Shown here: positions 7,230 to 64,000 of the stretch, piece by piece | Layout of the letters: the number at the start of each line of letters is the position of its first letter | Position numbering within the stretch: position 1 is the first letter of the stretch | Assembly: GCA_016933455.1 (NCBI GenBank) | Contig: JAFGAZ010000012.1 | Coordinates: forward strand, 1,625-65,624 | DNA: 64,000 bases | Source of the DNA: Candidatus Aenigmatarchaeota archaeon | GTDB lineage: Archaea > Aenigmatarchaeota > Aenigmatarchaeia > Aenigmatarchaeales > Aenigmatarchaeaceae | Reading direction: 5' to 3' | Program-made: the position numbers and the translations under genes | The notes under the pieces: generated by a model | Told to the model about the DNA's origin: nothing | The model's database searches: none | What the model saw: only the letters and a program-made list of their open reading frames with translations

Positions 7230-7235
7230 CAACAT

Positions 7236-8411: not shown

Positions 8412-8495
8412 GATTACAATATTTAGAATACTGAAATAAAACCTTTATCCAAAGCGTTTTAAGCCTTTTGGGATTCAATAATTTATAGTGATATT

Positions 8496-8891: not shown

Positions 8892-8939
8892 TTTTGTTGT
8901 AAAGAAAAAGTTTAATAGACGATTCAAGGATATATAATT

Positions 8940-23693: not shown

Positions 23694-23726
23694 ATATTTA
23701 TTTTGTCTGTATTACATAAAGAATTT

Positions 23727-24545: not shown

Positions 24546-24562
24546 GCGTAAACAATATCTAT

Positions 24563-24571
24563 CTTAAATAA
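24563..24571 (+). promoter_or_regulatory. TATA-box-like element upstream of rbcL
   Basis: CTTAAATAA lies about 31-39 nt upstream of ATG 24602. Confidence 0.3.
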
Positions 24572-24601
24572 CAAAAAGAAAGAAGAAAAAAAGTGTTTAA
24601 A

Positions 24602-47297: not shown

Positions 47298-47597
47298 TCA
47301 CTTCTTTGTTCTTTTCTTTCCTATATATTTTTTGATTGCTTTGAAGAACTTTAGCATTTTGTGGTAGGACTCGTATGAAATAAAGAGTATCAGCCCTATG
47401 AACGAGAAAGTTATGGCTGTCTCGATGTTTGTGACAAGGGGCAAGCCCATGTAGTTGGCAACCCACGGGAACACAAAGCCTGCAACAGAAACCAGAGCGG
47501 CCCTTACAAAGAACCTAAACATCTTGTACGAGACAAAGATTACAACTATGAATACCATGAAGACCAAAATGGATTCCAAGGTCAGCTCCACGACCAT
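47298..47597 (-). CDS. small 3-TM membrane protein (99 aa) with basic tail
   Basis: Three hydrophobic segments. C-terminal KKYIGKKRTKK. 4-nt gap to the downstream gene and 32 nt to minD. Confidence 0.5.
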   Translation of the reverse strand: MVVELTLESILVFMVFIVVIFVSYKMFRFFVRAALVSVAGFVFPWVANYMGLPLVTNIETAITFSFIGLILFISYESYHKMLKFFKAIKKYIGKKRTKK

Positions 47598-47629
47598 ATA
47601 GAATAATGGTGGATTTTCTTTAAAATATG

Positions 47630-48400: not shown

Positions 48401-48404
48401 GCAA

Positions 48405-49370
48405 TCACTTTGCACTCTTCGTGCTAAGGTTTAGTATCTTTTCCTCGTACTTTGTCCTCATTTCCTCGTAGCTGTGCCTTGATATTAGGCCTTCCCTGTA
48501 CTCTTCCTCAAGCAGGCCCTTGGCCTCTTCAAGGCTTCTTATCTCGTCGTCGACCTTGCTGTCTTGCTTTTCTCGCCTTATCAGCCTTTTTATCTTAAGG
48601 CCAGGTATGCTGCCTGGCGTTATATTGCTTTTTTTATTTCTTCCCAAAACAAAGAACCAAAGAAACATGGCTATAATTATAATTATCAAGGCCAGTATTA
48701 AAATCGTCTCGAATGAAATGCCCTTTGCTTGCGTTACTGGGCTTGTTTCTGCTATTGAAAGGTCGTATTCGGCCTTTTTGACTATAACTTCGACTTCCCT
48801 TATCTTTTCACCCGCCTCGTCGTAAAGCCTGCCGTACACATCGCTTGATGCAGCTTCAAGCAGCAAAGTTGCCTCGTCTATTTGTGCCCTTATCTCGCTT
48901 ACATCGCTGCCCCCTGCAGCTATACCATTTGCCTCGCTTTTTAGGCTTATTAGCTGGTCGCTAAAGTCCTGTATTTCCGATAGTAAGGAGTCTGTTCTTG
49001 ATGCGAATATCTCAACAGAAAAGTCTTCCCATGTAGTGACTTCGTCTGACACCGCTCTTAGTGAAAAGTCAAAGCTTCCGTTCTCCTCCTCGGCAGGAAC
49101 ATAAAGCTTGAATAGGAAAGCTGCTGTTTCTCCTGGCTGCACGCGCTTGGCTTCGTCTTGGGCCTCAAACCATGATGATTTTTCACCATCTATTAAAACC
49201 TGCACATTGTTTAGAGCAACATCTCCCGTGTTTTCCACGTCTATGCTAAGGTATCTTACCCAGCCCTTTTCGACCAGTATGTTTTCCTCAAAGCCTGTTA
49301 TCTCTATGCTTTGAGCAAAGGCTATGCTGGCAAAGAGAAGCATTATTATCAGTATTAGTATTTTTTTCAT
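48405..49370 (-). CDS. type I membrane protein: signal peptide, CARDB/NEW3-like Ig domain, helical stalk, TM, cytoplasmic SHOCT-like tail
   Basis: Start at ATG 49370 (MKKILILIIMLLFASIAFAQS). LSIDVENTGDVALNNVQVLIDG...VQPGETAAFLFKLYVP. TM ILILALIIIIIAMFLWFFVL. Tail EEEYREGLISRHSYEEMRTKYEEKIL. ATGA overlap with the upstream wHTH gene. Confidence 0.65.
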   Translation of the reverse strand: MKKILILIIMLLFASIAFAQSIEITGFEENILVEKGWVRYLSIDVENTGDVALNNVQVLIDGEKSSWFEAQDEAKRVQPGETAAFLFKLYVPAEEENGSFDFSLRAVSDEVTTWEDFSVEIFASRTDSLLSEIQDFSDQLISLKSEANGIAAGGSDVSEIRAQIDEATLLLEAASSDVYGRLYDEAGEKIREVEVIVKKAEYDLSIAETSPVTQAKGISFETILILALIIIIIAMFLWFFVLGRNKKSNITPGSIPGLKIKRLIRREKQDSKVDDEIRSLEEAKGLLEEEYREGLISRHSYEEMRTKYEEKILNLSTKSAK

Positions 49371-49579
49371 TTCGCCCACCACATGATCTTCTCCTTGGGG
49401 CCGTGGCTTGATTTTTCCACCTTGCTGCCAATAAGGCCCATTGACTTTAGCTTGTAGCAGTGAGAATTGGCCGTAGGCCATGTTATCTTAGAATGTTTTG
49501 CAATAAGGTAGGTGGACATGGGTTTTTTAGCTTTCTTTAGAACTTCTAGTATTTTCTTGTCTACCTCGGTTGTTATCAT
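49367..49579 (-). CDS. small winged-helix protein (70 aa)
   Basis: KKILEVLKKAKKPMSTYLIAKHSKITWPTANSHCYKLKSMGLI is an HTH plus wing pattern. Confidence 0.6.
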   Translation of the reverse strand: MITTEVDKKILEVLKKAKKPMSTYLIAKHSKITWPTANSHCYKLKSMGLIGSKVEKSSHGPKEKIMWWAK

Positions 49580-49593: not shown

Positions 49594-51117
49594 TTAATAT
49601 ATATTTAAAAATTCTTCAGCAGACTGCTGCTCTTGTTCCTCGACTTCTTTGACGGCTGATGGCACGATTTCTCTTAGACCGTCTGCAAATACCTGGGCTA
49701 TGTCGTCGTAGCCGTACTCCTGCCAGGACTCTCCTATCTCCGCCAGGGTGTTTTCCACCATGTTCTCTTTTTTCTTGTCCCAAAGGCCCTGACTCTTTAG
49801 CTGCTCGACGTTGTTTTTCAGCTCATCTATGTAGGACTTTATGTCGGTCGTGTTCTCTGCCCTTGAAATCATGTTCAAAATCTCGAAAAAGTTCATCCTT
49901 GCATCCGACTTTAGCACGTTCTCGGATACCTTTGATATCTTGGAGCTTACCTCCTTTAGTTTCTCGAGCATGTTTCGCGATATCTCTGTTTGCAGCCTCA
50001 TGGTTGAGCCGACACCCTCGCCCTCTATCGACTTTAGCCTATCTTCCATTTCCCTGCCCTTTTGTTCTAATAGCGTCATGCCGCTTTCCAGTTCGTTTAT
50101 TATTGATGGCAAAGACTTTATGCTGAAAGATTTCTCTCCCTCCAGTTTCTTTAGTTCTTCCTCCACCTTCTTTAGCAGGCTTTCGTTTTTTTGCTTTAGT
50201 TCGTTGTAGGAGGATTTTGATATCTCGCCCTTTCTGTCCTGCTCTTCCAAAGTTGCCAGAAGCCTTAGAATGTGCTCCTTTTTCGTTCTCATGTTGTCTC
50301 TTCTGTTTATTATTTCCTCTTCGGGTATCTTGAGAACTTCCTGAACGTCTTTTAGCTGCTCTTCTATTTTTTCCCTGCTTGAAACTATGACATTGTTAAC
50401 GCCCTTCTTGAAGATGTCCATGTCGTCCTTGGAAACAAAGCTCCCTAGTTTTATGTTTATCTCGTCCACTGATTTGGTAATTTCCCTGCTCAGATCGTCT
50501 ACCTTTTCTAGCCTTATTTTGAACTGGGGAAAGTCCTTCATCCTATTCTCTGTTTCTATGTAGAATCTCTCTGTTTTTGCAGACAACCTGTCAACATCCC
50601 TTTTCGTCTGCTCCATTTTGGCAGCCGCATCGTCCATCTTCTTTAGGGTCTCTGTCAGGTTCTCGATGCTTCGTATGTTTTCGGTGATGTTTTCCATGTT
50701 CTCTATTTTTCTTACAAGCTCCTTGTTGCCAAGTTCCATCTTTTCTATCTTCATTTCAAGGCTCTCTATTTCGGTTTTTCTTTTTTCCATGTCCTTTCTT
50801 ATCCGCATGGGCTCGATGTCTGTTACAGAATCAGAAAGCATCTTGACCTTTGTTTCCATCTCCTTTATCATGGTCTCTCTTTGGAATATCATGGACCTAA
50901 GCTCGCCTATCTTTTCTGACAGGTCCCGTATTCTCTCGTCTGCTTGGAACTTTACATCTTTAAGAGCAATAAACTCGGCCCCGAGCTTTTCTATCCTCAT
51001 CATTATTTCCTTGAGGCTAACTTCCTGCTCGAACTTGTATTTTTTCTCCTCTTCCTTGGGCCTTTCTTTTATTATGCCCTTTTCCTTGAGTATCTCTACC
51101 ACTGTTTTGGTTTCCAT
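49594..51117 (-). CDS. 507-aa coiled-coil protein (Glu/Lys-rich), function unknown
   Basis: ATG 51117 (the track's 51120 is TTG), 4 nt after the giant gene's stop. Heptad-rich throughout. Internal SHOCT-like motif DRKGEISKSSYNELKQKNESLL. Confidence 0.7.
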   Translation of the reverse strand: METKTVVEILKEKGIIKERPKEEEKKYKFEQEVSLKEIMMRIEKLGAEFIALKDVKFQADERIRDLSEKIGELRSMIFQRETMIKEMETKVKMLSDSVTDIEPMRIRKDMEKRKTEIESLEMKIEKMELGNKELVRKIENMENITENIRSIENLTETLKKMDDAAAKMEQTKRDVDRLSAKTERFYIETENRMKDFPQFKIRLEKVDDLSREITKSVDEINIKLGSFVSKDDMDIFKKGVNNVIVSSREKIEEQLKDVQEVLKIPEEEIINRRDNMRTKKEHILRLLATLEEQDRKGEISKSSYNELKQKNESLLKKVEEELKKLEGEKSFSIKSLPSIINELESGMTLLEQKGREMEDRLKSIEGEGVGSTMRLQTEISRNMLEKLKEVSSKISKVSENVLKSDARMNFFEILNMISRAENTTDIKSYIDELKNNVEQLKSQGLWDKKKENMVENTLAEIGESWQEYGYDDIAQVFADGLREIVPSAVKEVEEQEQQSAEEFLNIY

Positions 51118-51121
51118 CAAA

Positions 51122-54100
51122 TCACTTCTCTTCCATGCTCTTGAGCCTGGTGTTTATAGAATCAATATACGTCTCGGCCATCCTCATCTGTCCGGTCTTG
51201 ACTTTTTCACCGGCCAGCTTGAGCTCAAGCTCCATGTCATAAGTATCTATTCCCTTGCTCTTTAATTTTTCTACTTTTTCTGCCAGCTCCTTTATCTTGT
51301 CAGCATAATCCTCGTACTTTTGCAGCTCCTCGTCTGTTAGCCTGAACGTGTCGTGTAGCAATGGCCTAAAGGTTATGAACCATGGCTTGCCGTCGTTGTA
51401 CGATGGGTTTTGAACCATGCCTGTTCCAATGTCTAGCTTGGGTATGGACTCTGCATAGTCCCAGCCGTACTTTGTCTTTATCCTGTTTACGTCTCCCTCG
51501 TACTTTGTTCTGAGCTGCATTTCAGTTGCAATAACAGCCCTTATGGCTCCCTTGAAATCCAAAAGCACCTGCGAAATCATCACAAGACCGATTCCCCACT
51601 TTCTGAATTCCCTGCAAGCTCTCTCTATTGCCTGGTATCCTCCGCCTTCAAGGGAAGCTCCTGATTTCTTGGAGTACTTTGGAAGTAGCCTGTGCACCTC
51701 GTCAAATACTACCATTAGTTTCATCTTCCTTGACTCTGGCCAGGACACCTTGAACATGTAGTCGACAGTCTTTCTGATAAAGTAATCCAGTTGGTCTGCT
51801 GTTAGCTTGTTTAACACGAAAACGGTCATCTCTCCTGGCTTTACATACTTTTCTATCTCAAGCTTGAGGAAGGGATCTTTTATCGGGACAATCGAACCCT
51901 TGAAAGACCTTGCCTCTTCTTCCTTCATGCCGAATTTCTTGTAGTTGTTAATCATTTCCTTGTCATTGTTGGATCTGATAAAGCCTGTCCACTGGGCTGT
52001 GGGGTCGAAGACTATGACTGGAATGTTCTTCTTTAGGGCCTCTTCAGCCATGACCATGGCAGCCACTGTCTTTCCAGAGCCCGTGCCGCCTGCTATTATG
52101 GTGTGGGTTGTCAATTTCTCTTCTTCAATGTAGGCATTTGTATTGGTCTCGGCTATCTTTCCAAGCAAAAGCCCCTTCTTGGGCAGCTTGTTTAGCTTGA
52201 CAGGCCTTACATACCTGCCCCTGACCCTTTTCTGAGAGTGCCATTTCTCGAATAGTTTCCAACCCAAAAGGAAGCTGGGTATTGCTACGAAAAGAACTAT
52301 GTATGTCATCCAGTTGGTGAACAGGTCTATTAGGAATGTTATTATCCATGGCTGGTCGACTACGCTAAATGAAGTCACAGACGTGGCTATCTTGTCGTCG
52401 TACGATGCCACGGCTTCTAGCACGTAAAGACCCAATGCGGTGTCCTCTGGTATTCTCATTCTCCTCACAAAAGTGGTGGACGTTTCAACTGCTATTGATT
52501 CCTCATCCACTGTTAATATTTCCTGGGTTTCAGTAGATTTTATGGTGTAGTTGTTTATTATATCTACTCTTTTAGTCATTCCCAAATTGTATATTGTCAC
52601 CTGGTATTCTAAAATTCCTCCCGGCCTTACTTCTTTTGTTATGGCGTCAACCTTGAGGTCTAGGAGCTTTTCTCTTTCATATTCCACCCTGAGTATAACG
52701 TCTATTGTCTCGACAACTCCGTCGTATTCAACTTTAATCTTGCCGTTGTAAACGCCCGGAATAGTTGTCGGCATTGTTGTGAACTTTATCTTGGCATTGA
52801 CTGTCTCTCCTGCTTGTATGTCTAATGTGTCGTCCTCGAACATTGTGTATGGCCATATGGCGCCGTCAACGGAGAGCTTGACTTGTTTTGCCACTGACCT
52901 CTTGTTTGTTAGGCCTATGCTTACTAATTGGTATTCGCCCGGATAGAGTCTGACTTCGATTAATCTTGTTGTAAGGGTTATGTCTGTTTGTATTGCATCT
53001 TTTTCTTCGACCGTTGTTGTTGGAGCTGACCCTCCTCCTGGTGATCCTCCTGTCGGTCCTGTTGGTGTTGTTCCGCAGTCTGCGGGGCAGAAGGCGCTAG
53101 TTTCTCCATACAGCGATTCGCAAGCACCGTCCCCGCATATGAACTCTGCCACAGCATATGCTCCTGATATTTCCGACATGCTGGTTGTCAGGGTGTTGTT
53201 GAATATGTCAAGAGTCGAGCTAAGCCTTGTCCAGCACGAGTTGTCCGTTGCCGGAGTCCTGTTTGAGAACAGCCAGTTCTCGCACCTGTATATGCCAAGT
53301 GATGTCTCAGAGGAGTAGCCTGTTCCCGTGTAGTTCATGATTAGTGTTGCGTCAGTGTAGTTGAGTATTGTCTGGAAGTACAATGCCTTTGCAACTCTCG
53401 AGTTGGCCCCTCCGATAAGGAACGTTGACAGCGGGTCTATCAGGGTGGCGTTGTCTATATCGGAGGCTATGCTAACGTTGGAAAGGTTCACTGCGTTGTT
53501 TAGAGTGCCAATGCCCACATCATAGTATCTCATGTGCGCTATGTTGCTGTAGTATCCTGAAGCGTTCGATTCAAAGCTGTCAAGCAGGCTTCCTGTTGTG
53601 TTGAACATGTCAAATGATACGTCCACCGGGTAGCTTTCCGCATCTACTGATGTTCCGTTAAACCATGCCGGAACGTATACCTCGAACCATCCTGACTCGT
53701 TGCCCCAGTTGTTCGACGAATCATTCGCAAACACTGTAAAGTAATAGTCGCCGACCTCTGTTAGATTTGATAAAGTATAATCCCAAGTATCTCCTCCTGC
53801 AGGCGACATTGAGTAGTTTGCTACAGTTCCGTTTATTGCTGGGTATGTTACCTGCGCTATCACAGTACTAACTCCGCCTGCGTCAGTTACATTGGCCTCT
53901 ATTGTAACGTCGCTAAGAGGCAAAATAGAGTTGGCCTCTACTGTTATCTCGGGAGGCGTTAGGTCAGGTCCTCCTGTTGCAACTATTCCAAACCATTCTG
54001 CTATTATTCTTATTAGAGATATTATTCTGTCTGCAAAGGCGTTTACGTTCAAAGCTTCTGTTATGTTGACAAGCAGTGTTCTGTATCTGCTAACAGAGTC

Positions 54101-57100
54101 TGTTACTGACATTACAACGCTAACGATCCTTTCGTAAACGCGGCCTGATATGCTGACATCTGTAAGTACATTTATTTGCTCGGTTATCATCATCAAAATA
54201 GACTGCGTTCTTGCTGCAAATTCGTTTAGATAAATGCTGTCAGCTATGTTTCTTGTGAATGACATTAGCCTGTTTGCTGCATCGCTAATTCCAAGAGCTT
54301 GGATCGTATCTCTTATGTAGACAAAGTTCCTTGTGACACTGTCGCCTATGTTGAATGTCTCTGAAATCCTAATGAATAGTGACTGCAACCTGCTTACTAT
54401 TGCGTTCGTATTGAGTGTTTCAGAGACGCTTCTTGTGATACTAGATAGCCTGCTTGCATAATCTGAAGTTGTTATTTGTTGGATTACGTTTATCAGGGTC
54501 GCAAGTGTCCTGTCCACTGTGCTCTGGAAACCAAAGCTGTCTGTTGCTGACCTTATTGCAGAAATTATCCTGCCTGTAATGCTGCTTATATCAAGACTTT
54601 GATTTATCTGCAGTGTTATTGCCTGGATTCTTGAAGCGATTTCATTTATGCTAATAGATTGCTGCAATGTTCTTGAGAACATCATCAGTCTCTGTGAAGC
54701 GTTGTTTATTATAAGCGAGTCTATAATCTCTCTGATGTACACAAAGCCCCTTGAAACACCCGAGGATATGCCAAAGCTTTCTGACATTACCCTTGTCAGA
54801 GCCTGCAGTCTTGCTGCAAGGTTCTGCGCTGTTATGCTCTGTGATATCTGCCTGATTATTGCTTGCAGCCTTGATGCGTAATCAGACAAACCTATTGGAT
54901 TAGTTACACTTCTTACGGCTATCGATATCCTGCTGGACAGCTCGTTTATGTTGAACGAATCTGCAAGTATCCTGGTCAAAGCCTGTAGTCTTGAGACTCC
55001 TTCATTTATGCCAAAGTAGCCAGTTGCTGTTCTGTAAAAGTCAGATAATCTGCTTGCATTGTTTTGCAGACCAAATGACTCTAATATCTCAAGTAGCATG
55101 GCGGTTGTTCTTTCCACAAGCGATTCTATGCCAAGACTGTCTGAAACAGTCCTCATTATTGCCTGCAATCTGCTTGAAACGTTTTCAATTGATATTGTCT
55201 GGCTTATCTGTATTGTTATGTCCTGCAACCTATCAGATAGAACGTTCAAGTTGAGCTGCTGCGTTATAGTCCTTAGGTAGCTGTAAATCTGGTTGCTTGC
55301 GTCGCTTATGTTTATTGTTTCTATCACGTCCCTAAAGTATGAAAAGCCCCTAAATATGTTCGATTCAAAAGTCAGGGTGTCATATACACCTCTTAGCATT
55401 GTTGTTAGCCTCTGCGAAATCTCGTTCACAGACAATTGCTGTGTTATCGATCTTATCACGCTTGCAAATCTTGTGGAATAGTTCTCAATTCCTATCGAAT
55501 CTGAGACGCTTCTTATTATGGTAAATATCCTATTGGAAACTTCGTTTATGTCAAAGGAATCCGTTATCATTCTTGATATCAATTGCAGCCTTGATGCGCT
55601 GTCGCTTATGCCAAAGTAGCCAGTTGCTGTTCTGTAGAAATCAGCAAGCCTGCTTGCGCTGTCGCTCATGCCAAAGCTTTCTGTTATCTGCAAAAGCATT
55701 GCAGTGAGCCTGTCAACTGCGCTGTCTATGCCAAAGAAGTCCGTTACTGACCTCATTATGATTGCAAATCTTTCAGAGATGTTGTTGACGTTTATTGTCT
55801 GTGCAAAGTACCTTGTTATGTCTTGTATTCTGTCTGCTACGTTGTTTATGCCAAGCTGTTCTGACATCATCCTAAAGTAGTTATACAACTGGCCAGTCGC
55901 ATCGCTTATGCTGAACGTGTCGCTTATGCTTCTGAAGTAGACAAAGCCTCTGAATATTCCAGAGTTAAATGATATCGTGTCGAATATATTTCTGAATATG
56001 GATGCGAATCTTTCAGAGACATTGCTCACATTTATCGAGTCGGATAATATCCTAAGTATGCTTGCCATTCTTTCCGATGCTGTTTGCATTGTTATGCTAT
56101 CTGTTGCCGACCTGAAAGCGCTCATCAGTCTTGATGCCGATTCATTGAATTGGAGAATGTTTCCTAATGTTCTAAGTATCGCTTGGAGTCTTGATGCAAG
56201 GTTGCTTATGTTTAGAGTCTCTGTTGCGTTTCTTGTGATCAATGCCAGTCTTGATGACGCATTCTCTATACTAAAGAAGTCTGATATCTGCCTAAACATC
56301 AAAGCCAGCTCTTGCGAAACATTGCTTACGGAAAGCTGCTGGGTTATTGCCCTGAATATTGAAGAGAGTCTGGAGACGCTTTCGTTTAGTGTTATCTGCA
56401 GAGCCACTTCTACTCTGTTGTATCCCATCTTGTCTGCTATTGTCTGCAAATTGAAAGTTATCGTGTCGAATATAATTCTAAGGTATGCGTACATGTTGTT
56501 TGCAGCATCCGTTATGCCGAGGCTTTCAAGCGCCATCCTAATGTATGTTGGTACAAGGCCCGAGCTTGAGGATGCTGAGAAGTATGATGTCACTGATCTA
56601 ATTCCTGTTGCTATTCTTGTTGCATAGTCGTTTAGTGACAGTGCCTGGCTTATCATCTGCGTTATTGACTGCAGCCTGCCAGCCAGATTGTTTAACGCTA
56701 TATTCTGCGTTGCCTGCCTTAGCATTGTTGCAAGCCTTCCTGATGCATTTTCGATGCTGAAAGTTTCGAATACGTCTCTTAGGTATGCAAAGCCTCTTTC
56801 CGTTGCCTGGCCTAGGCCAAACGAATCCGTTACTGTTCTTATTATTTCCTGCAGCCTGCTGCTTGCGGCATTTATTGCGATGCTGTCTGCTATGCTTCTG
56901 AAGATGCTTGCCAGTCTTTCCGAAGCCTCTGATATACCGAAGCTGTCTGTCACTATCCTGAATATAGAGGTTATCCTTTGTGCGGCGTTGTTTATTCCCA
57001 AGCTTTCTGTCAACAGTCTTTGTATTTCAACTAACCTGTTTGCAGAGTTTTGCAATCCTATGGTTTCTGATAGAAGTCTTAACATTGTTGATAACCGTTG

Positions 57101-60100
57101 GGAAATGTTTTCTATTTGGAAAGATTCTGTCACTGACCTTACGAATGAGAAGCCCCTTGAAACCGCATCCGAAAGTTGCAATGTATCGGTTATGCTTCTA
57201 AATATAGATGATAATCTTTCGGCAACGTTTCCTAGGTTTATATCCTGTCCTATAATCCTAAGCATTGCTGTTAGCCTATCTGCCGAGTCGCTTATGCCAA
57301 AGCTTTGCACAACGCTTCTTAGGGTTGCTGTTAATCTGTCAGCTATACTATCAATTCCAAAACTATCTGTCGCTGTTCTATATGCTGACAAAATCCTGTT
57401 GGATATGTTTTCAATCGAAAGCGTTTCTGTTATTTCTGTTATCAAATATTGCAATCTTCCTGCAAAGTTTTCCAAGCTTAATGTATCAGTAACAATTCTT
57501 GAGAAGGTCACCAGCCTGTTGGCATAATTTTCTATACCAAAGGAATCTGCTGTTATTCTCAGGAATGAAAAGCCCCTTTCTATTGCCGAGTCGAATGAAA
57601 GTATTTCATAAACGTTTCTAATAATTGAGGCTATTCTTTCTGCTATGTTGTTTAATGATAACGAGTCTGTAATTTCTCTAACAAAGCTTCCAAGTCTTGA
57701 CATTGAAAATGTCGTTGTGAAATAGTCAGTTATGGTCCTGAAGATGTCACTTAGCCTTCCAGACGTTTCTGTTAATGTGAAACCTTGCAGCGGATTCCTG
57801 TTGTATTCCCCTAGCCTTCCTGTCTCATCGTCTAAGGAAAATATCTGTGAAGAGTTCAGGAAGTGCTCTCCTATGTAGAGGGGTATCTGCAATGACGAAG
57901 ATGTATAGTTTTCTCCTTCCGAAGCTCTAGCTGTGTAGTAGTAGTAACTATTGTCCAAAGTAGTTGTGTCGTTCCAAAGGTTATAGTCTGAGCAGTTATT
58001 GCCTGCTCTACATAATATTTCTTCTGCAGATAATACGCGTGGATATATTTTCACTTCATCTATTGTTCCATTGAAGAATGAATCACCATTCGTTAGTCTT
58101 CTCATAGAACCTATAGTTATACTTCTATCATAGCTTCCCATAGCATTGGATGATACAAATTCGTTTTCTAAACCATTTATATAAAATTTTATTGAACCTG
58201 TATTGTTATCAACAGATATTGCTACATGTGTCCATTCATTATTAGTAATTGTATAGCTACTGTCATATAGATCTCCATTACCATCCATCCATACTAATTC
58301 ATTATCTAATCCGCCGCCTTGATTATTTAATCCAAAATCCCATGCCTCTGTTCCTGTGTATCCTAGACTTCCTTTGCTTACTATTCCTTGCCAGTCATCG
58401 CCTTCATCTTTCCAATTTATCCAAGCTTCAATTGTAATTTTATCTTCTAATGTTAATGATTCTGAATTAGAAATTTCAATATAATCGCCTAATCCATCAA
58501 ATTCTAAGCAGTTCCCATAAGTACAGCCGGATGACCATATTGGTACTCCATGTGTGGAGTTTTTCAAAGTTCCTGTGTTGTTGTTGCCAGTATCATCAAA
58601 TGTGTAATTGTTCTCACCTTCGTCAAAGTGCCATATTGCTGAGACTGTTCCGTTTCTGTAAAAGTCATAGTAGACATCTGAATCGCCTGTGTTCTCTTCT
58701 GACATAGAGAAGTTATTTTCTATGGAGTTGTCTGACCTGGTCTCGTATAGTTCTTTTATTTCGCCTGTTGATAATGAGCGGTTCCACAATCTCACCTCGT
58801 CCATAGTTCCTGTGAAATTTTCCGAATATGCGATATTTGCCCTGCCCAATTTTATTTCCTTTAAGCTGTTGGAAAAGTCACCTTCTCCCGATATGTCGAA
58901 TGAGTTCTCAAAATCCCCGTCCATGAAAATCGAAACATTGTCTCCGAAATAAAAGACTGAGACAGAATGGTGCCAAATGCCGTCATTATAAGAACCAACG
59001 GTGCTTCCGGACTCGCCAGTGCTAACGCCGTCGCTTAATTCAACTCCTACGTTTCCGCCTACTGATAAATATGTGTGCCATCCCTGGCTCCAGGACTCGG
59101 AACCCTTCGAGATGAACCTTTCTTTTCTTCCAGATGATGTAGTTTTGAACCACCATTCAACTGCAAAGTCAGATGAACCGAGCGTGTTCAGGTTGGAATA
59201 GTTGTATATTTCCACAAAGTCAGCAATGCCATCGTATTCCAATGCTTTGCCTAGTTTACCATTAGTCCATGAAGGGCACGCTTCACCTCCACAAACACCT
59301 GTTTGATTTTTCAAGTATCCTGTATTGTTATTTCCTGATTTATCATATGTGATATTACGAATACCTTCATCAAACTTCCAGTATCCGACAAGTCCTGAAG
59401 TATTTACCTCGGCAGTGTTGTTGCTAAGAGTAATGTTTGGCTTTGCCTTGCTAATTAGCATCCATGAAGTGCTTGTCGAGGACGAATAGTTCTCTGATGT
59501 GGAGTAAACGCAGGTATAGTTCCAAAGGCCTGCGGGCAAGACAATTGTCTCATCGATAGGTGTTGTTCCCGTATCGACCTGGCTACCGTTTCTATAAAGT
59601 GTTAGAGTTGCTGAACTATCGCCTGTTACCAAGCTGCATTCTGCTACATCCGTCAGTCCATAGTCTGTGTTGTTGTTGGTAAGCGAGATTGAAACAGATG
59701 ATGTTGCCTTTCCTATATTGATAAAGTACGACTTGGAAGCCGAAGAATAGTTTGTATTTCCAGATGTGTTGTAGACATACCAGTGTGTCTCGTTCGCAAA
59801 TGTCATGATGTCAGACTGTGGATTGCTTGAGCCCACTGAGGTGTTGTAGTATCTGTAAAGCGTGAATGTGGGGACGTTTCCAAATAATCCTGTAAAGTAA
59901 CCTGTTGCATTAGACGCCTGGCCGTATGTATAGCTCTTGTTGCCTTCTGTTCCGTTTATGGTCAGGTTCATGTAGCTTTCTGTCGAAGAGTTCTGGTTTA
60001 TCGTTACAGTGTCAGTAACTCCTGTTGCATTAGCAGTCCAGTTAGCGCCTCCTGTAGCATTGAACCTGTAAGCATATGATCCGACTCCTAGGTATATCTG

Positions 60101-63100
60101 CTCCTGGTAGGTTTCGGTGTCGTCTACCATGGAAGAGTCCCTCCAAAGCTGGTATGTAACGTCGCTGTCTCCGCTGTTGGATTCGGTTCCTGTTACTGTT
60201 GACTGGTAGGGGTATGTTTGCGTTGTTCCTCCTGATATGGACAAGTCCATTGTCGCCTTGCTGACGCTCAAGGGAAGCAGTATTGAAGACTTTGTATAGT
60301 TCTGGGTCGGTGGCATGAAAGCCTCGTAATAGTATGATCCGGCTCCCAAAATCGTTGCGTCATATTCTGTAGAGTTCTTGGCTCCCCTAAGGACTGCTAT
60401 TTCTTCGTCTGTTAATGTCCTGTTATAGACTCGGAATTCGTCAACCATACCGTCGAAATATTCGTTTGAGAAGCATGCCCAGTATGTGTTTCCAACATAC
60501 CAGTAATTGGTATTCGAATCTGCAACAGTACCAAAATCTGACCTGCTGTTGCTTCCAACAAGACCGTTTTCGTCGTATAACTGTATATCGAACACTCCGT
60601 CGTAAGCATCTGTCGAGCTTTCTTGTTTTATTCTAAACACTGCAAAGTACCACTTGTTTTCCCATGTTATGCTGCTTATGCTCTGACCCTTGCCTCCCGA
60701 CTGGTCATAACATGTTCCATATACGCTGTCTACTCCTATAGAATAGCCCCATCTCTTGTAGAAAAGCCAGCTCTGTGAATTCAATTCAGATACATCTGGT
60801 TTGAACCATGCCGTCATGGTGAGATTGTTACCGTTCACAAGAGGCTCTAGACTGTCGCTTCTTACATACTCCTTTTTATCCAATTCCAAGGCCTTTCCGA
60901 ACTTTCCTTGGGTCGCGTTGGGGTCGTTGTCTAGTTGAAGCATGTCTATGTTTGTAGTGAATGGTGTCGTGTCAGCTGCTTCCAATGACCATATTATCTT
61001 ATCTACTTTTTCTGTGTGGAGATCGTCTAGTCTTATCCAATCAAGATTTATGTGCTGGTAGTATCTTGAGAGGTCCGAACGGTTAAAGTCCCATTGTATG
61101 TAATCGATTGTGGAAAGGTCCAAAGCGCCTGGAGCTTCGTCTGTTGGGCTTGAGAGGTCTAATGCATAAGCCTTCCAGTTGGCATACTGGCAGCCCAAGT
61201 CCCAATAGGCCCAATCACCTGAAGTGTCGTATGCATAAAGTCTAAGGTAATCTGTTTCTTCGCAAGGAACACAGTGTGACATCATGAAATGTAGGTAAGA
61301 ATTTGAAGACCAGTCCCAGTTTCCTGTTGGGTTATATCTGAAATAATAATCCGTGTTAGTGCTCAAATCGTCCCCATAAACATAGAACCTTACGTAATAG
61401 TCCCCTTCCCTGTTGGAATCCACTATTGATATTGAAGACGACCCTCCAGTATTGTTTTTTGACCAATCTGTTATTGACTCGCAGTTTGTTATTGTTGTAT
61501 TGCTGCCTCCGTTTGAATTGTCCTTTCCTCCATATCCGTTCATGTAAGCCATATAGAGCCATTTATTCTCCCAATTATCCGAGGAAAAGTCAATGTCCCA
61601 GTAGCGGTAGTTGTCGTCAGAGTCGTATACGTATACTCTTGCTTGATTAAAGTCTGTGCTAGATCTATTATTTCTGATCCAGAATGTCTGCTCAAAGTTG
61701 TTATTCCAATTCCACGTTCCTGAGGGATCGTAAGATATATTGTATGTGTTGCTTGCCGAAGGTGATGAAACCGTGTCTTTCAAAGAGTATGTTCCGTCCT
61801 TCTTTTCAGTATAATCCAGTGAAAGGCTTGTTCCTGTAAAGTCTGATGTTGATTCCATCGAGCTCGTGGTTGTCGGTGTTGGATAAAGCCTTGCATCGGA
61901 GTTTGATTCGCTTGCGTCATGAACAATTGAGCCTTCTATTTCGTCAAAAGACCAGTAGAGTATGTAATCATCCAGAGTGTTCGTTGTGTTATTTACTCTG
62001 AACATGTAGGCTCCGTTGATATCATTTGCATTGTTTTCGGACACGCTAAAGTTCGTCTGCGTTCCGTATGTTACCGATGATTGGTATATTTCCTTTATTT
62101 CATCTGATGAAAGTGTTCTGTTCCATACCCTAACCTCATCTATGGTGCCATTCATTATTCTTACTGCATCGTTTCCCTTTCCTATTATAACGCTATTCGA
62201 ATCGTTTCTCAAAACTCCTGTAACGGTAAATAAGAAGCTATTTACCAATGTTCCATTTACATATATTTTTCCGGTCCCGTTAGGTAGATAAGTTCCAACG
62301 ACATGATACCAAGCATTTGTCTGTATGTCTATATCCCCGCTGTTGTCGCAGTCCCAATCCGTGTCATTTGCTACACAGAATTCTATACCGTCAACTCCCG
62401 TATGGAAAACTATTTCATACGCATTTCCGTATTGGACTTTTCCTATTATCGGATAAACTTCTCCTCCACTAAACTCATTTAACTTGGCCCAACCTTCTAC
62501 GGTTAATTCGTTCATACTGCCTAGAGAATTTGAATCCTGGATTTCTACATAATCCCCTTCACCGTCAAACTCCAAACCTTGACCGAATCTTCCCTCTGTC
62601 CATGTCGGCACACCGTGCGTCGAGTTCTGCAAAGTTCCGTCATTATCCCAACCACTTGCGTCATATGTCGTGTTACCGATACCCTCGTCTAACTTCCAGT
62701 AGCCTACAAGACCGGAAGTGTTGACTTCTGCTGTATTGTTGCTCAACGTGATGTTCGGCTTTGCCTTGCTAATTAGCATCCAGGATGTGCTTGTAGAGGA
62801 CGAGTAGTTCTCTGATGTTGAATAAGCGCAAGTATAGTTCCAAAGTCCTGCAGGGAGTACTGTTGTTTCGTCTATTGGTGATGTTCCTGTGTTAGTTATC
62901 GTCTGATTTCTATACAATGTCAATGTGGCTGAGCTATCTCCTGTTACAAGCGAACATTCTGCTATGTTTGTCAAGCCGTAATCGGTATTGTTATTGGTTA
63001 ATGCTATTGAGACTGACGAAGAACCCTTGTTGACCAAAGCATAATACGTCAGACCTGTAGAGTTGTCTGAATAATTCTCGTTTCCTGTTGCATTTACCTT

Positions 63101-64000
63101 GTAAGCATACGTTCCGTTTGATAATAGTATCTGCTCACTTGTTCCCTTTGATACACCGTCCCTGTAAAGGGAAGGTGTCAGTACAGTTGATGTTCCGGTT
63201 GCGTTCACAGCTTCAGGATAGGTGTATGTTTCATTGTCGTTTAATGTCGTGTTCAGGTATAGATTTACGGGGTTTGATGCTTTGGCTATTGTCAAAGTGT
63301 TGCTATCACTTTCAGCAGTGTAATTGGTAGTTGCAGTCATGTTGCAAATAACTTCAACGCCTCCAGGTGCTGCGGCAAATACAGTTGAGCTGTCGTTGTA
63401 TTCGTTGTGCTCAAGTCCGTCATAGTAAAGATTTGATGTACCATCTCCCTCGCAAGTGCAAGTCAGTGTTGTCGCTGCGCCGTAGGTGTATGACCATCCG
63501 TTTGAGGAAGCTATGGTACATGTAGTTGTTGTGTTCTGCTCAACAGTCATTGTCTGCGTGTCCATGTCGTCTGTTGCTGAAAAGTTTGTGCAGCCTGTGG
63601 TGTTCAATTTGTATTCATAGCTACCCACGCCTAGCGTTATGTCCGTTTCTCCACTTCCCTTGTCAGAATCATCCCTCCATACCTTGTATGTGCATCCTCC
63701 GTCAACAGAATTTGATTCAGAGTAGCTGACAGTCACCTGCTTTGGATATGTATATGTCCATGTGCTGTCTGTTATTGTGAGCGAGCCTGTGGGTGTTGCC
63801 TTATTTACTGTCAAAATGTCCGTATCGCTTCCAGCAGTCCAGTTATCACAACCTGTTGTATAGTAAGTATAATTGTAAACATCAGCTCCAAGAACCGTGG
63901 TGTCGCTTACCGAAGACCCAGAATCAATAGAGCTTCCGTTCCTTAATAGCTCGTACGTGCAGTCGCTGTCCCCTATGTTCGATTCAGATCCATAATAGTC
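51122..64000 (-). CDS. giant multidomain surface protein (more than 4,290 aa, N-terminus outside window) with C-terminal TM segment and cytoplasmic HerA/FtsK-like ATPase
   Basis: Single open frame from the window edge to TGA 51124..51122. Hand translation of 63815..64000 has no stop and continues the Ig-like module (..SESNIGDSDCTYELLRNGSS..). See the domain sub-features below. Confidence 0.9.
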   Translation of the reverse strand, partial: DYYGSESNIGDSDCTYELLRNGSSIDSGSSVSDTTVLGADVYNYTYYTTGCDNWTAGSDTDILTVNKATPTGSLTITDSTWTYTYPKQVTVSYSESNSVDGGCTYKVWRDDSDKGSGETDITLGVGSYEYKLNTTGCTNFSATDDMDTQTMTVEQNTTTTCTIASSNGWSYTYGAATTLTCTCEGDGTSNLYYDGLEHNEYNDSSTVFAAAPGGVEVICNMTATTNYTAESDSNTLTIAKASNPVNLYLNTTLNDNETYTYPEAVNATGTSTVLTPSLYRDGVSKGTSEQILLSNGTYAYKVNATGNENYSDNSTGLTYYALVNKGSSSVSIALTNNNTDYGLTNIAECSLVTGDSSATLTLYRNQTITNTGTSPIDETTVLPAGLWNYTCAYSTSENYSSSTSTSWMLISKAKPNITLSNNTAEVNTSGLVGYWKLDEGIGNTTYDASGWDNDGTLQNSTHGVPTWTEGRFGQGLEFDGEGDYVEIQDSNSLGSMNELTVEGWAKLNEFSGGEVYPIIGKVQYGNAYEIVFHTGVDGIEFCVANDTDWDCDNSGDIDIQTNAWYHVVGTYLPNGTGKIYVNGTLVNSFLFTVTGVLRNDSNSVIIGKGNDAVRIMNGTIDEVRVWNRTLSSDEIKEIYQSSVTYGTQTNFSVSENNANDINGAYMFRVNNTTNTLDDYILYWSFDEIEGSIVHDASESNSDARLYPTPTTTSSMESTSDFTGTSLSLDYTEKKDGTYSLKDTVSSPSASNTYNISYDPSGTWNWNNNFEQTFWIRNNRSSTDFNQARVYVYDSDDNYRYWDIDFSSDNWENKWLYMAYMNGYGGKDNSNGGSNTTITNCESITDWSKNNTGGSSSISIVDSNREGDYYVRFYVYGDDLSTNTDYYFRYNPTGNWDWSSNSYLHFMMSHCVPCEETDYLRLYAYDTSGDWAYWDLGCQYANWKAYALDLSSPTDEAPGALDLSTIDYIQWDFNRSDLSRYYQHINLDWIRLDDLHTEKVDKIIWSLEAADTTPFTTNIDMLQLDNDPNATQGKFGKALELDKKEYVRSDSLEPLVNGNNLTMTAWFKPDVSELNSQSWLFYKRWGYSIGVDSVYGTCYDQSGGKGQSISSITWENKWYFAVFRIKQESSTDAYDGVFDIQLYDENGLVGSNSRSDFGTVADSNTNYWYVGNTYWACFSNEYFDGMVDEFRVYNRTLTDEEIAVLRGAKNSTEYDATILGAGSYYYEAFMPPTQNYTKSSILLPLSVSKATMDLSISGGTTQTYPYQSTVTGTESNSGDSDVTYQLWRDSSMVDDTETYQEQIYLGVGSYAYRFNATGGANWTANATGVTDTVTINQNSSTESYMNLTINGTEGNKSYTYGQASNATGYFTGLFGNVPTFTLYRYYNTSVGSSNPQSDIMTFANETHWYVYNTSGNTNYSSASKSYFINIGKATSSVSISLTNNNTDYGLTDVAECSLVTGDSSATLTLYRNGSQVDTGTTPIDETIVLPAGLWNYTCVYSTSENYSSSTSTSWMLISKAKPNITLSNNTAEVNTSGLVGYWKFDEGIRNITYDKSGNNNTGYLKNQTGVCGGEACPSWTNGKLGKALEYDGIADFVEIYNYSNLNTLGSSDFAVEWWFKTTSSGRKERFISKGSESWSQGWHTYLSVGGNVGVELSDGVSTGESGSTVGSYNDGIWHHSVSVFYFGDNVSIFMDGDFENSFDISGEGDFSNSLKEIKLGRANIAYSENFTGTMDEVRLWNRSLSTGEIKELYETRSDNSIENNFSMSEENTGDSDVYYDFYRNGTVSAIWHFDEGENNYTFDDTGNNNTGTLKNSTHGVPIWSSGCTYGNCLEFDGLGDYIEISNSESLTLEDKITIEAWINWKDEGDDWQGIVSKGSLGYTGTEAWDFGLNNQGGGLDNELVWMDGNGDLYDSSYTITNNEWTHVAISVDNNTGSIKFYINGLENEFVSSNAMGSYDRSITIGSMRRLTNGDSFFNGTIDEVKIYPRVLSAEEILCRAGNNCSDYNLWNDTTTLDNSYYYYTARASEGENYTSSSLQIPLYIGEHFLNSSQIFSLDDETGRLGEYNRNPLQGFTLTETSGRLSDIFRTITDYFTTTFSMSRLGSFVREITDSLSLNNIAERIASIIRNVYEILSFDSAIERGFSFLRITADSFGIENYANRLVTFSRIVTDTLSLENFAGRLQYLITEITETLSIENISNRILSAYRTATDSFGIDSIADRLTATLRSVVQSFGISDSADRLTAMLRIIGQDINLGNVAERLSSIFRSITDTLQLSDAVSRGFSFVRSVTESFQIENISQRLSTMLRLLSETIGLQNSANRLVEIQRLLTESLGINNAAQRITSIFRIVTDSFGISEASERLASIFRSIADSIAINAASSRLQEIIRTVTDSFGLGQATERGFAYLRDVFETFSIENASGRLATMLRQATQNIALNNLAGRLQSITQMISQALSLNDYATRIATGIRSVTSYFSASSSSGLVPTYIRMALESLGITDAANNMYAYLRIIFDTITFNLQTIADKMGYNRVEVALQITLNESVSRLSSIFRAITQQLSVSNVSQELALMFRQISDFFSIENASSRLALITRNATETLNISNLASRLQAILRTLGNILQFNESASRLMSAFRSATDSITMQTASERMASILRILSDSINVSNVSERFASIFRNIFDTISFNSGIFRGFVYFRSISDTFSISDATGQLYNYFRMMSEQLGINNVADRIQDITRYFAQTINVNNISERFAIIMRSVTDFFGIDSAVDRLTAMLLQITESFGMSDSASRLADFYRTATGYFGISDSASRLQLISRMITDSFDINEVSNRIFTIIRSVSDSIGIENYSTRFASVIRSITQQLSVNEISQRLTTMLRGVYDTLTFESNIFRGFSYFRDVIETINISDASNQIYSYLRTITQQLNLNVLSDRLQDITIQISQTISIENVSSRLQAIMRTVSDSLGIESLVERTTAMLLEILESFGLQNNASRLSDFYRTATGYFGINEGVSRLQALTRILADSFNINELSSRISIAVRSVTNPIGLSDYASRLQAIIRQISQSITAQNLAARLQALTRVMSESFGISSGVSRGFVYIREIIDSLIINNASQRLMMFSRTLQQSISINEIASRIQAITLQINQSLDISSITGRIISAIRSATDSFGFQSTVDRTLATLINVIQQITTSDYASRLSSITRSVSETLNTNAIVSRLQSLFIRISETFNIGDSVTRNFVYIRDTIQALGISDAANRLMSFTRNIADSIYLNEFAARTQSILMMITEQINVLTDVSISGRVYERIVSVVMSVTDSVSRYRTLLVNITEALNVNAFADRIISLIRIIAEWFGIVATGGPDLTPPEITVEANSILPLSDVTIEANVTDAGGVSTVIAQVTYPAINGTVANYSMSPAGGDTWDYTLSNLTEVGDYYFTVFANDSSNNWGNESGWFEVYVPAWFNGTSVDAESYPVDVSFDMFNTTGSLLDSFESNASGYYSNIAHMRYYDVGIGTLNNAVNLSNVSIASDIDNATLIDPLSTFLIGGANSRVAKALYFQTILNYTDATLIMNYTGTGYSSETSLGIYRCENWLFSNRTPATDNSCWTRLSSTLDIFNNTLTTSMSEISGAYAVAEFICGDGACESLYGETSAFCPADCGTTPTGPTGGSPGGGSAPTTTVEEKDAIQTDITLTTRLIEVRLYPGEYQLVSIGLTNKRSVAKQVKLSVDGAIWPYTMFEDDTLDIQAGETVNAKIKFTTMPTTIPGVYNGKIKVEYDGVVETIDVILRVEYEREKLLDLKVDAITKEVRPGGILEYQVTIYNLGMTKRVDIINNYTIKSTETQEILTVDEESIAVETSTTFVRRMRIPEDTALGLYVLEAVASYDDKIATSVTSFSVVDQPWIITFLIDLFTNWMTYIVLFVAIPSFLLGWKLFEKWHSQKRVRGRYVRPVKLNKLPKKGLLLGKIAETNTNAYIEEEKLTTHTIIAGGTGSGKTVAAMVMAEEALKKNIPVIVFDPTAQWTGFIRSNNDKEMINNYKKFGMKEEEARSFKGSIVPIKDPFLKLEIEKYVKPGEMTVFVLNKLTADQLDYFIRKTVDYMFKVSWPESRKMKLMVVFDEVHRLLPKYSKKSGASLEGGGYQAIERACREFRKWGIGLVMISQVLLDFKGAIRAVIATEMQLRTKYEGDVNRIKTKYGWDYAESIPKLDIGTGMVQNPSYNDGKPWFITFRPLLHDTFRLTDEELQKYEDYADKIKELAEKVEKLKSKGIDTYDMELELKLAGEKVKTGQMRMAETYIDSINTRLKSMEEK
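51340..52190 (-). other. HerA/FtsK/VirB4-clade P-loop NTPase domain of the giant protein (approx. limits)
   Basis: THTIIAGGTGSGKTV (Walker A), KLMVVFDEVHRLLP (Walker B), GIGLVMISQ. Followed by a coiled-coil tail at 51125..51340. Confidence 0.7.
52255..52350 (-). other. transmembrane segment of the giant protein
   Basis: WIITFLIDLFTNWMTYIVLFVAIPSFLLGW, followed by KLFEKWHSQKRVRGRYVRPVKLNKLPKK (positive-inside). Confidence 0.7.
52355..52990 (-). other. two CARDB/NEW3-like Ig domains preceding the TM (approx.)
   Basis: RLYPGEYQLVSIGLTNKRSVAKQVKLSV...IQAGETVNAKIKFTTMPTTIPGVYNGKI, and RPGGILEYQVTIYNLGMTKRV... Confidence 0.4.
53975..57830 (-). repeat. about 64 tandem 20-aa (60-nt) coding repeats with 6-10-unit super-repeats
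   Basis: Units such as RLASIFRSIADSIAINAASS, RLQEIIRTVTDSFGLGQATE, RGFAYLRDVFETFSIENASG. A 31-nt identity at 55006..55036 and 55606..55636 is offset by exactly 600 nt. Confidence 0.9.
58000..58640 (-). other. LamG/ConA-like lectin domain 4 (approx.)
   Basis: AIWHFDEGENNYTFDDTGNNNTGTL...CLEFDGLGDYIEI...WTHVAISVD...IKFYINGL...FNGTIDEVKIYPRVLSAEEI. Confidence 0.75.
58741..59400 (-). other. LamG/ConA-like lectin domain 3 (approx.)
   Basis: GLVGYWKFDEGIRNITYDKSGNNNTGYL...ALEYDGIADFVEI...WHHSVSVF...FTGTMDEVRLWNRSLSTGEIKELY. Confidence 0.75.
59330..59712 (-). repeat. internal duplication, copy B (Ig module + LamG start)
   Basis: Roughly 75-80% nt identity by eye to 62640..63025. Shares an identical 26-mer GGCTTTGCCTTGCTAATTAGCATCCA (59439..59464 vs 62756..62781). 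Confidence 0.85.
60385..60915 (-). other. LamG/ConA-like lectin domain 2 (approx.)
   Basis: GKFGKALELDKKEYVRSDS...LTMTAWFKP...WYFAVFRI...FDGMVDEFRVYNRTLTDEEIAVL. Confidence 0.65.
61025..61835 (-). other. two tandem jelly-roll, CBM-like modules (approx.)
   Basis: YNISYDPSGTWNWNNNFEQTFWIRNN...ARVYVYDSDDNYRYWDIDFSSDNWENKW, and YYFRYNPTGNWDWSSNSYLHFMMSH...LRLYAYDTSGDWAYWDLGCQYANWKAYALDLS...IDYIQWDF. Confidence 0.35.
62075..62718 (-). other. LamG/ConA-like lectin domain 1 (approx.)
   Basis: GLVGYWKLDEGIGNTTYDASGWDNDGTL...GLEFDGEGDYVEI...LTVEGWAKL...WYHVVGTY...IYVNGTL...MNGTIDEVRVWNRTLSSDEIKEIY. Confidence 0.75.
62640..63025 (-). repeat. internal duplication, copy A
   Basis: Protein level: SLVTGDSSATLTLYRN...LPAGLWNYTC.YSTSENYSSSTSTSWMLISKAKPNITLSNNTAEVNTSGLVGYWK in both copies, 3,317 nt apart. 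Confidence 0.85.

Follow-up and report, generated by a model that had tools for sequence, protein, structure and literature searches.

The locus

The window analysed here comprises 64,000 nucleotides of a contig from Candidatus Aenigmatarchaeota archaeon (assembly GCA_016933455.1, JAFGAZ010000012.1, positions 1,625 to 65,624). One end of it is occupied by a giant gene on the minus strand which, judged by the sequence and the domain architecture of its product, almost certainly encodes a SPEARE-family giant surface protein of a DPANN archaeon. The open reading frame (ORF) extends from base 64000 to the stop codon TGA at 51124..51122. In the ORF listing and the full translation it consists of 4,292 codons with zero internal stops. 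A first-pass annotation of this DNA had described the uninterrupted frame and had doubted that the TTG at 63814 is the real start; both hold, and this TTG is merely the first start codon usable by the ORF lister. Since the frame reaches the window edge, the true N-terminus and any signal peptide lie beyond the window. The following features were assigned to the giant, with residues (aa) numbered from the window edge, TM for transmembrane and Ig for immunoglobulin.

51122..64000, minus strand: giant ORF assigned to the SPEARE family, 5' end cut by the window edge; 4,292 codons and stop
62711..64000, minus strand: N-terminal array of modules of about 90 aa, sequon-rich and presumed Ig-like, without profile support (aa 1-430)
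62093..62566, minus strand: LamG domain 1 (aa 479-636; Pfam Laminin_G_3, E 3.9e-28)
61001..61903, minus strand: two W/Y/D-rich modules, possible jelly rolls (aa ~700-1000; Agarase_CBM only)
60395..60874, minus strand: LamG domain 2 (aa ~1043-1202; Laminin_G_3, E 8e-14)
59366..60283, minus strand: second array of modules of about 90 aa, within an internal duplication (aa 1240-1545)
58754..59194, minus strand: LamG domain 3 (aa ~1603-1749; Laminin_G_3, E 9.5e-20)
58016..58495, minus strand: LamG domain 4 (aa ~1836-1995; Laminin_G_3, E 2.7e-27)
53996..57790, minus strand: about 63 tandem 20-aa repeats, fold possibly helical (aa 2071-3335)
53150..53968, minus strand: post-repeat beta-rich region, common to the close relatives L008 and P0205 (aa 3345-3617)
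53012..53143, minus strand: Cys-rich motif FICGDGACESLYGETSAFCPADC and Pro/Gly/Thr linker, where fused and unfused family members differ (aa 3620-3663)
52355..53017, minus strand: pair of juxtamembrane Ig-like (NEW3/CARDB-like) domains, belonging to the conserved core of the family (aa 3662-3882)
52250..52351, minus strand: one strong hydrophobic segment, predicted single TM helix, also in the structure model (aa 3884-3917)
52175..52249, minus strand: basic cluster after the TM helix, fitting the positive-inside rule (aa 3918-3942)
51335..52198, minus strand: HerA-clade P-loop ATPase core (aa 3935-4222)
52067-52093, minus strand: Walker A, AGGTGSGKT (aa 3970-3978)
51683-51718, minus strand: Walker B, LMVVFDEVH (starting at aa 4095)
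51569-51613, minus strand: REFRKWG motif within the ATPase core
51125..51334, minus strand: C-terminal three-helix or coiled-coil tail, from the structure model (aa 4223-4292)

Sequence-based prediction places most of the protein, an ectodomain of more than 3,880 aa, outside the cytoplasm and the part behind a single TM helix near the C-terminus inside it. Directly after the hydrophobic segment at aa 3884-3917 follows EKWHSQKRVRGRYVRPVKLNKLPKK. All 117 N-x-S/T sequons lie upstream of this segment. In the non-repeat ectodomain 98 sequons were counted versus 48.6 +/- 5.8 in shuffled sequences, and the observed number was reached in none of 500 shuffles. The cytoplasmic part contains no sequon where 1.3 are expected, which alone is not significant. 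The lysine content rises from 2.0% in the ectodomain to 12.4% in the tail region behind the TM helix. The restriction of sequons to the upstream part and the lysine shift across the membrane segment thus point to an ectodomain outside and an ATPase inside the cell. The same layout and the same sequon distribution had been proposed in the first-pass annotation.

Relationship to the SPEARE proteins

SPEARE proteins of nanohaloarchaea were described by Hamm et al. 2019 (PMC6642349). They reach up to 8,553 aa, are mostly extracytoplasmic, carry a TM segment near the C-terminus and contain at least one LamG domain. Their conserved intracellular part was interpreted as a type III restriction enzyme. 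The same study reported short versions of 655 and 717 aa, expression in Ca. Nanohaloarchaeum antarcticus by proteomics, and intracellular SPEARE-like sequences in Woesearchaeota, Aenigmarchaeota, Micrarchaeota and Altiarchaeales. La Cono et al. 2023 (PMC10266531) described a signal peptide, an Ig array, a TM segment, a cytosolic 'VirB4/TraG-like' ATPase and a coiled coil, and proposed a secretion 'straw' or conduit. They disputed the protease and restriction domains of the founding members.

Residues 3640-4292 of the window protein aligned by blastp to the C-terminus of the 8,553-aa SPEARE protein of Ca. Nanopetramus SG9 with 36% identity over 643 aa (E 9e-129) and to that of Ca. Nanohalococcus SVXNc_0300 (9,409 aa) with 33% identity over 633 aa (E 4e-120). 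The last ~650 aa thus match published giants over their whole length, which makes the window protein a member of the SPEARE family, and the architecture has already been described in the two studies. The first-pass annotation, which knew of no described system of this kind, was mistaken in this respect. By cluster look-up none of the accessions listed by Hamm et al. matched the relatives of the window protein; the link to the published proteins was made via AQV86_02330 and the SVXNc genome. A search seeded with a nanohaloarchaeal member of the family led to AQV86_02330 of SG9 and to short paralogues of Ca. Nanohalococcus and Ca. Nanohalovita, and directly upstream of the SG9 and SVXNc short paralogues lie the 8,553-aa and 9,409-aa giants.

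With regard to the SPEARE description of at least one LamG domain together with other adhesion domains, four Laminin_G_3 domains were identified, and the remaining modules are without profile support. Protease, nuclease or toxin domains were found nowhere in the 4,292 aa with Pfam and NCBIfam. Protease and nuclease domains were not taken as defining for SPEARE, because they are disputed for the founding members (La Cono et al. 2023).

The nanohaloarchaeal proteins NAR1_1133 of Ca. Nanohaloarchaeum antarcticus, AQV86_04780 of SG9 and SVXNc_0300 of Ca. Nanohalococcus occultus show the same domain order as the window giant: a variable LamG/Ig-type ectodomain, two juxtamembrane Ig-like domains, a TM helix, a cytoplasmic ATPase and a coiled-coil tail. 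Their downstream coiled-coil gene is homologous to the one in the window (E ~1e-21). In contrast, the closest ATPase relatives of the window giant belong to Aenigmatarchaeota, whereas the published proteins are from Nanohaloarchaeota. The ectodomain of the window protein consists of four LamG domains and about 63 20-aa repeats, that of the nanohaloarchaeal proteins of about 75 Ig domains or of regions reported as protease- or toxin-like. Unlike at the nanohaloarchaeal loci, a short paralogue does not adjoin the window giant; a 358-aa membrane protein and a MinD gene are present instead.

What has been called the 'second VirB4/TraG ATPase' beside the nanohaloarchaeal giants (SVXNc_0299, AQV86_02330) is a short protein paralogous to the C-terminal module of the giant itself. 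At L086 (CP104395) and L088 (CP012986) the short paralogue is followed by the coiled-coil partner gene and a conserved 108-aa gene.

ATPase domain

The Pfam model DUF87, the HerA central domain, matched the ATPase with 38.4 bits (cut-off 23.2), while FtsK_SpoIIIE and HerA_C remained slightly under their cut-offs. A phmmer search of the PDB with the ATPase returned HerA-type chains only, with 8wiv and 4d2i as best matches, and aligned the motif REFRKWGIGLVMISQ to REGRKFGVGLTIVSQ of HerA. With the family profile, HerA was matched in the PDB at E 7e-11, FtsK and DotL/coupling proteins at E > 0.01, and VirB4 was not among the matches. The best NCBIfam matches were CedD, the serine-rich protein model NF033849, Thermoproteota-type HerA, TraD, CedB and TraB, all far under their cut-offs (CedD 41.6 bits vs 600, CedB 23.7 vs 700), and the Ced match was limited to the Walker A region.

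In the confident AlphaFold2 (AF2) monomer model of aa 3880-4292, a long TM helix is followed by a RecA-like core and then by three helices at the C-terminus; the mean predicted local distance difference test (pLDDT) is 92.8 and the predicted template modelling score 0.88. In Foldseek the ATPase model ranked Sulfolobus HerA (4d2i, E 7e-14) first, followed by HerA-NurA and anti-phage HerA complexes; VirB4 (4ag5) appeared at rank 42 with E 2.8e-9. HerA is therefore the top match by sequence, profile and fold, which identifies the ATPase as a divergent HerA-clade member of the FtsK-HerA superfamily. This narrows the assignment to the HerA/FtsK/VirB4 clade made in the first-pass annotation. By sequence comparison and structure prediction, the motor is nearer to HerA than to VirB4 or ResIII. 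The Walker A, Walker B and REFRKWG columns are invariant in an alignment of 81 homologues (A1), and the domain is a conserved, apparently active motor.

The similarity to HerA (4d2i of Sulfolobus solfataricus, HerA-NurA, anti-phage HerA complexes) comprises the RecA-like core, Walker A and B and the motif RE-x-RK-x-G-x-G-hhh-SQ; the identity is just ~12-19%. HerA is soluble, whereas the giant is membrane-anchored, with a TM helix and an ectodomain in place of the N-terminal barrel domain, and none of the HerA partners NurA, SIR2 and DUF4297 is present with the giant. CedB and CedD of Sulfolobales (PMC11868833, PMC9905601) are archaeal, belong to the same superfamily and serve a membrane system for DNA import from cell to cell, but their scores are far under the cut-offs, the giant is without a CedA-like polytopic partner and the Ced proteins are without an ectodomain. 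VirB4, VirD4/TraG/TraD and FtsK/SpoIIIE/TraB share the FtsK-HerA superfamily with the giant, and several of them are N-terminally membrane-anchored hexameric DNA pumps. They gave weaker matches than HerA, and the giant lacks both the N-terminal domain of VirB4 and the gamma domain of FtsK, with no component of a type IV secretion system (T4SS) nearby.

Fused and unfused relatives

For the region of TM helix, ATPase and tail, 429 relatives were retrieved from protein databases at E < 1e-5. Wherever a source is named, it is a DPANN archaeon, and the annotation reads DUF87, DUF853 or HerA-like. In complete short members of 550-700 aa, a signal peptide precedes two Ig-like domains, the TM helix, the ATPase and the tail. 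When one genome per GTDB species was scanned, the family was detected in at least 560 archaeal genome contigs. The best 80 of these loci are mostly from DPANN archaea, chiefly Aenigmatarchaeota, with Micrarchaeota, Nanoarchaeia, Pacearchaeota, Woesearchaeota and Nanohalarchaeota also represented. In 57 of these 80 loci no stop interrupts the frame over 1,000 aa or more upstream of the TM-ATPase region, and in 43 none occurs in the entire 10-kb flank.

In L001, which is syntenic with the window and 72% identical, the 20-aa repeats continue in frame as far as the contig end. The exact junction of the window protein (post-repeat region, Cys-rich motif, Pro/Gly linker, two Ig-like domains, TM helix, ATPase) recurs in L008 (71% identity) and in the fragment P0205. 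L007, L009, L011 and L012, as close as L008, have short genes of ~730 aa with their own signal peptide, and upstream of these lie separate surface-protein genes of 1,381-2,212 aa and a gene of ~311-323 aa. The break point between both forms is the Cys-rich/Pro-Gly linker. Thus, with fused and unfused forms among close relatives, the hypervariable ectodomain is a module which is fused or split at this linker. At L004 a fused gene of 3,904 aa is followed by a short paralogue.

The separate short ATPase genes with signal peptide in L007, L009, L011 and L012 could suggest that a chimeric assembly or a hidden frameshift has joined an adhesin gene to an independent membrane ATPase gene in the window. 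This is contradicted by the in-frame junction in L008 and P0205 and the in-frame repeats of L001. The fusion also occurs in cultivated nanohaloarchaea whose genomes are closed, and in the majority of the best 80 genome loci. The GC content is uniform (0.427 in the giant gene vs 0.422 in the rest of the window), and the window is free of N bases. An assembly artefact is effectively excluded, and the fusion described in the first-pass annotation proved genuine in independent assemblies.

The best 120 matches listed in each of two protein searches were all 710 aa or shorter, and several that were checked are shortened gene calls. A reading of the family as short proteins, derived from these entries, was rejected, since the DNA frames reveal many of them as incomplete calls or contig-end fragments of giants. 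A systematic mis-annotation has to be flagged here: many database entries carry just the last 350-700 aa. At L005 (positions 3042-9101; Micrarchaeota, GCA_026396285.1, JAPLXB010000045.1) the publicly annotated protein is a 366-aa 'DUF853 family protein' (P0107), in a frame that extends over 2,019 aa without a stop. This frame is overlapped in another one by an upstream ORF, at least 1,122 aa long and called as a gene of 1,889 aa with Pfam matches to Kelch-type beta-propellers, which suggests a frameshift or a mis-call.

Genes downstream of the giant

Three minus-strand genes follow the giant.

49594..51120, minus strand: conserved coiled-coil partner gene, 508 aa, starting 2 nt past the stop of the giant
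48405..49481, minus strand: 358-aa single-pass membrane protein with NEW3-like Ig ectodomain, TM helix and cytoplasmic coiled coil; variable linkage to the giant
47630..48415, minus strand: archaeal MinD-type ATPase, linked to the giant in a minority of relatives

The 508-aa partner is coiled coil throughout, and Pfam and NCBIfam gave generic SMC/Rad50 coiled-coil similarity only. Its N-terminal ~200 aa are conserved in all six loci first examined and also in SG9 and SVXNc. A homologue lies at most 2.5 kb downstream in 71 of 74 genome loci. Homologues of the 358-aa protein are linked in 38 and MinD in 16 of these 74. A MinD/FtsK-like role in cell division was rejected as main explanation, MinD being linked in so few loci. 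Beyond MinD lies a gene for a 99-aa hydrophobic protein without family match (window 47298-49481 for the group, minus strand); the gene order is as in L001.

Ectodomain and 20-residue repeat

The domain order given in the first-pass annotation was largely recovered. The four LamG domains, the 20-aa repeats (about 63), the linker, the TM helix, the Lys/Arg cluster, the P-loop and the helical tail stand; the Ig-like and carbohydrate-binding-type modules gained no significant Pfam match, and for the CARDB-like pair a weak NEW3 match was all that was obtained. Ends resembling L-T-[VI]-x-K-A were located in the ~90-aa modules at aa 63, 151, 236, 408, 1244, 1332 and 1514. The juxtamembrane Ig-like pair matched NEW3/NPCBM_assoc weakly (E 8e-4) and is conserved across the SPEARE-type family.

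An NCBIfam match to TafC (E 2.8e-32) was considered as an identity for the giant and rejected. In the Tat-fimbriae of haloarchaea, TafC serves as the tip adhesin and bears a LamG domain (PMC11821415). The match is partial, reaches 112 bits vs a cut-off of 410 and covers LamG domain 4 alone, so that neither a fimbrial subunit nor the repeats are meant by it. The LamG adhesin domain is common to both proteins and is the only part that matches; a pilin-like donor-strand domain is absent from the giant.

The period of the repeat is strictly 20 aa over aa 2071-3335, with a consensus of roughly TDSFGIxNxAxRLxxxxRxV. In the giant it received no Pfam or PHROG assignment. A phmmer search of 1.84 billion representative sequences gave 1,536 matches at E <= 1e-3, of which 596 reached 1e-10; the repeat is a large, widespread family without a Pfam match. 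Of three other repeat proteins that were read, two carry the 20-aa repeat behind an N-terminal domain of LamG or jelly-roll type: P0349 with LamG and P0351 with a weak jelly-roll-type (PepX_C) match. Both match PHROGs of unknown function. In a sequence search of the PDB the repeat matched only a designed helical repeat, weakly (E 1e-3).

A segmental duplication was observed within the giant. Residues 114-689 and 1208-1796, containing Ig-like modules and LamG, share 42% identity over 606 aa; in the window they correspond to 61.9-63.7 kb and 58.6-60.4 kb, respectively. Inside it, a younger block of 230 nt (59343-59572 vs 62661-62890) is 81% identical at the DNA level.

Possible function

DPANN archaea have small cells and reduced genomes, and the cultivated ones need direct contact to host cells. 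For the SPEARE layout a transfer at host contact has already been proposed (Hamm et al. 2019, PMC6642349; La Cono et al. 2023, PMC10266531). The contact apparatus with transfer of material suggested in the first-pass annotation is the same idea as these published hypotheses; new here are the HerA-like type of the motor, the conserved partner gene, the occurrence of fused and unfused forms and the spread of the family.

As best explanation overall we favour, with moderate confidence, a SPEARE giant in which an adhesin ectodomain is combined with a HerA-clade motor moving a polymer at cell contact. The mechanism of such a translocation can be outlined by analogy and is put forward tentatively. 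The cytoplasmic ATPase would form a hexameric ring under the membrane like other FtsK-HerA ATPases, and six TM helices with the juxtamembrane Ig domains would constitute the base of the structure. The long glycosylated ectodomains may attach to the surface of a host cell or another partner. With the coiled-coil partner as brace or regulator, the motor would spend ATP to move a polymer at the contact site. The most likely substrate would be DNA, as the analogy to HerA, to FtsK/TraB and to the Ced import ATPases of archaea suggests; of the latter, CedB and CedD act in DNA import (PMC11868833).

A number of observations weigh against this explanation. A single TM helix in each subunit offers little on which to build a channel, and a polytopic channel protein such as CedA or VirB6 was not found linked to the giant. 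The canonical N-terminal barrel domain of HerA is absent, the AF2 model passing from the TM helix straight into the RecA-like core, and a NurA nuclease partner was not found among the window ORFs. The ~90-aa modules presumed to be Ig-like and the W/Y-rich modules, possible jelly rolls, are without significant Pfam match (Agarase_CBM E 0.013). For 300 aa of repeats, AF2 gave no confident fold (pLDDT 31.6) with a pseudo-alignment of the window's own repeat blocks, which overlapped, were staggered by MAFFT and contributed little. Finally, peptides of the SPEARE ectodomain and of the TM/cytoplasmic part were recovered in separate size fractions (Hamm et al. 2019, PMC6642349). Hence both parts may work separately after cleavage.

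The absence of a linked channel protein and the single TM helix would suit a different role of the ATPase, namely as an anchoring or remodelling hub. Ring and coiled-coil partner would tether, cluster, tension or recycle the adhesin from inside and nothing would pass the membrane. The linkage of a long coiled-coil partner in 71 of 74 loci and the helical tail of the ATPase itself agree with this, as does the use of HerA as assembly platform or scaffold in the SIR2-HerA and DUF4297-HerA defence complexes, both of which belong to the best structural matches. However, other membrane-anchored members of the FtsK-HerA superfamily (FtsK, SpoIIIE, TraB, VirD4, CedB) move DNA. The invariant catalytic motifs favour an active motor, yet do not discriminate a hub from a translocase. 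We regard a hub without translocation as unlikely. The published 'straw' (La Cono et al. 2023, PMC10266531), in which the ATPase is of the VirB4/TraG secretion type and the giant is a T4SS-like conduit injecting effectors into the host, appears more improbable still. The ATPase does belong to the VirB4/VirD4 superfamily, and weak matches to TraD, VirB4, TraC models and FtsK_SpoIIIE as well as the Foldseek match to 4ag5 are in line with it. But HerA structures stand above VirB4 by about five orders of magnitude in the fold search, and in the profile search E < 1e-6 was reached by HerA-type chains only. The N-terminal domain CagE_TrbE_VirB was not detected in the giant with Pfam and NCBIfam. The 48 other ORFs scanned in the window contain no T4SS or Ced channel parts (VirB6, VirB2, VirD4-like and CedA-like were not found), nor were VirB6, VirB2 or VirB3/8-like components present among the called genes of related loci. 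The nanohaloarchaeal 'second' ATPase, being a short paralogue from the giant's family, is no distinct VirB4.

The original reading of SPEARE by Hamm et al. 2019, a DNA-uptake pore with intracellular restriction endonuclease and serine protease, has very little probability for the window protein. Pfam ResIII indeed matches aa 3962-4108 (E 4.5e-5), the type of match that inspired the SPEARE name, and DNA uptake overlaps with the explanation favoured here. This match covers the P-loop core only and is overlapped by the stronger DUF87 match. Helicase_C and nuclease domains were not found in the giant with Pfam, protease and toxin domains are lacking from all 4,292 aa, and La Cono et al. concluded likewise for the nanohaloarchaeal proteins (PMC10266531).

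The favoured combination of adhesin and polymer-moving motor can be extended to a more general proposal, which we consider speculative and rather doubtful. The conserved core (Cys-rich/Pro-Gly linker, two Ig-like domains, one TM helix, HerA-clade ATPase, helical tail) and the coiled-coil partner, which almost always adjoins it, would together form the base that energises a cell-to-cell translocon widespread among DPANN archaea. Unrelated to T4SS and Ced, this translocon would drive DNA of the host, or another polymer, through the membrane of the symbiont where the two cells touch. Host specificity would be set by swappable giant ectodomains, either fused or separately encoded.

SPEARE-type proteins are leading candidates for moving material between DPANN and host cells. 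With the window, the family is documented outside the halophiles, in a lineage with closest relatives in Aenigmatarchaeota. Giant forms are common among the best-matching loci. Type of motor, partner gene, spread, size and modularity of the family together offer concrete targets for biochemistry and cryo-electron tomography.

Remaining part of the window

The rest of the window is an ordinary DPANN-type chromosome with genes of glycolysis, glycogen metabolism, form III RuBisCO, MCM, RFC and ribosomal protein L10e. At 23703-25828 a gene of the IF-2B family adjoins the gene for the RuBisCO large subunit, probably of form III; presumably the pair belongs to the archaeal AMP/nucleoside salvage pathway common in DPANN. 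A gene for a prepilin-type peptidase (Peptidase_A24) was identified at 43125-43943, about 7 kb from the giant gene, and suggests type IV pilus-like surface structures in this organism.

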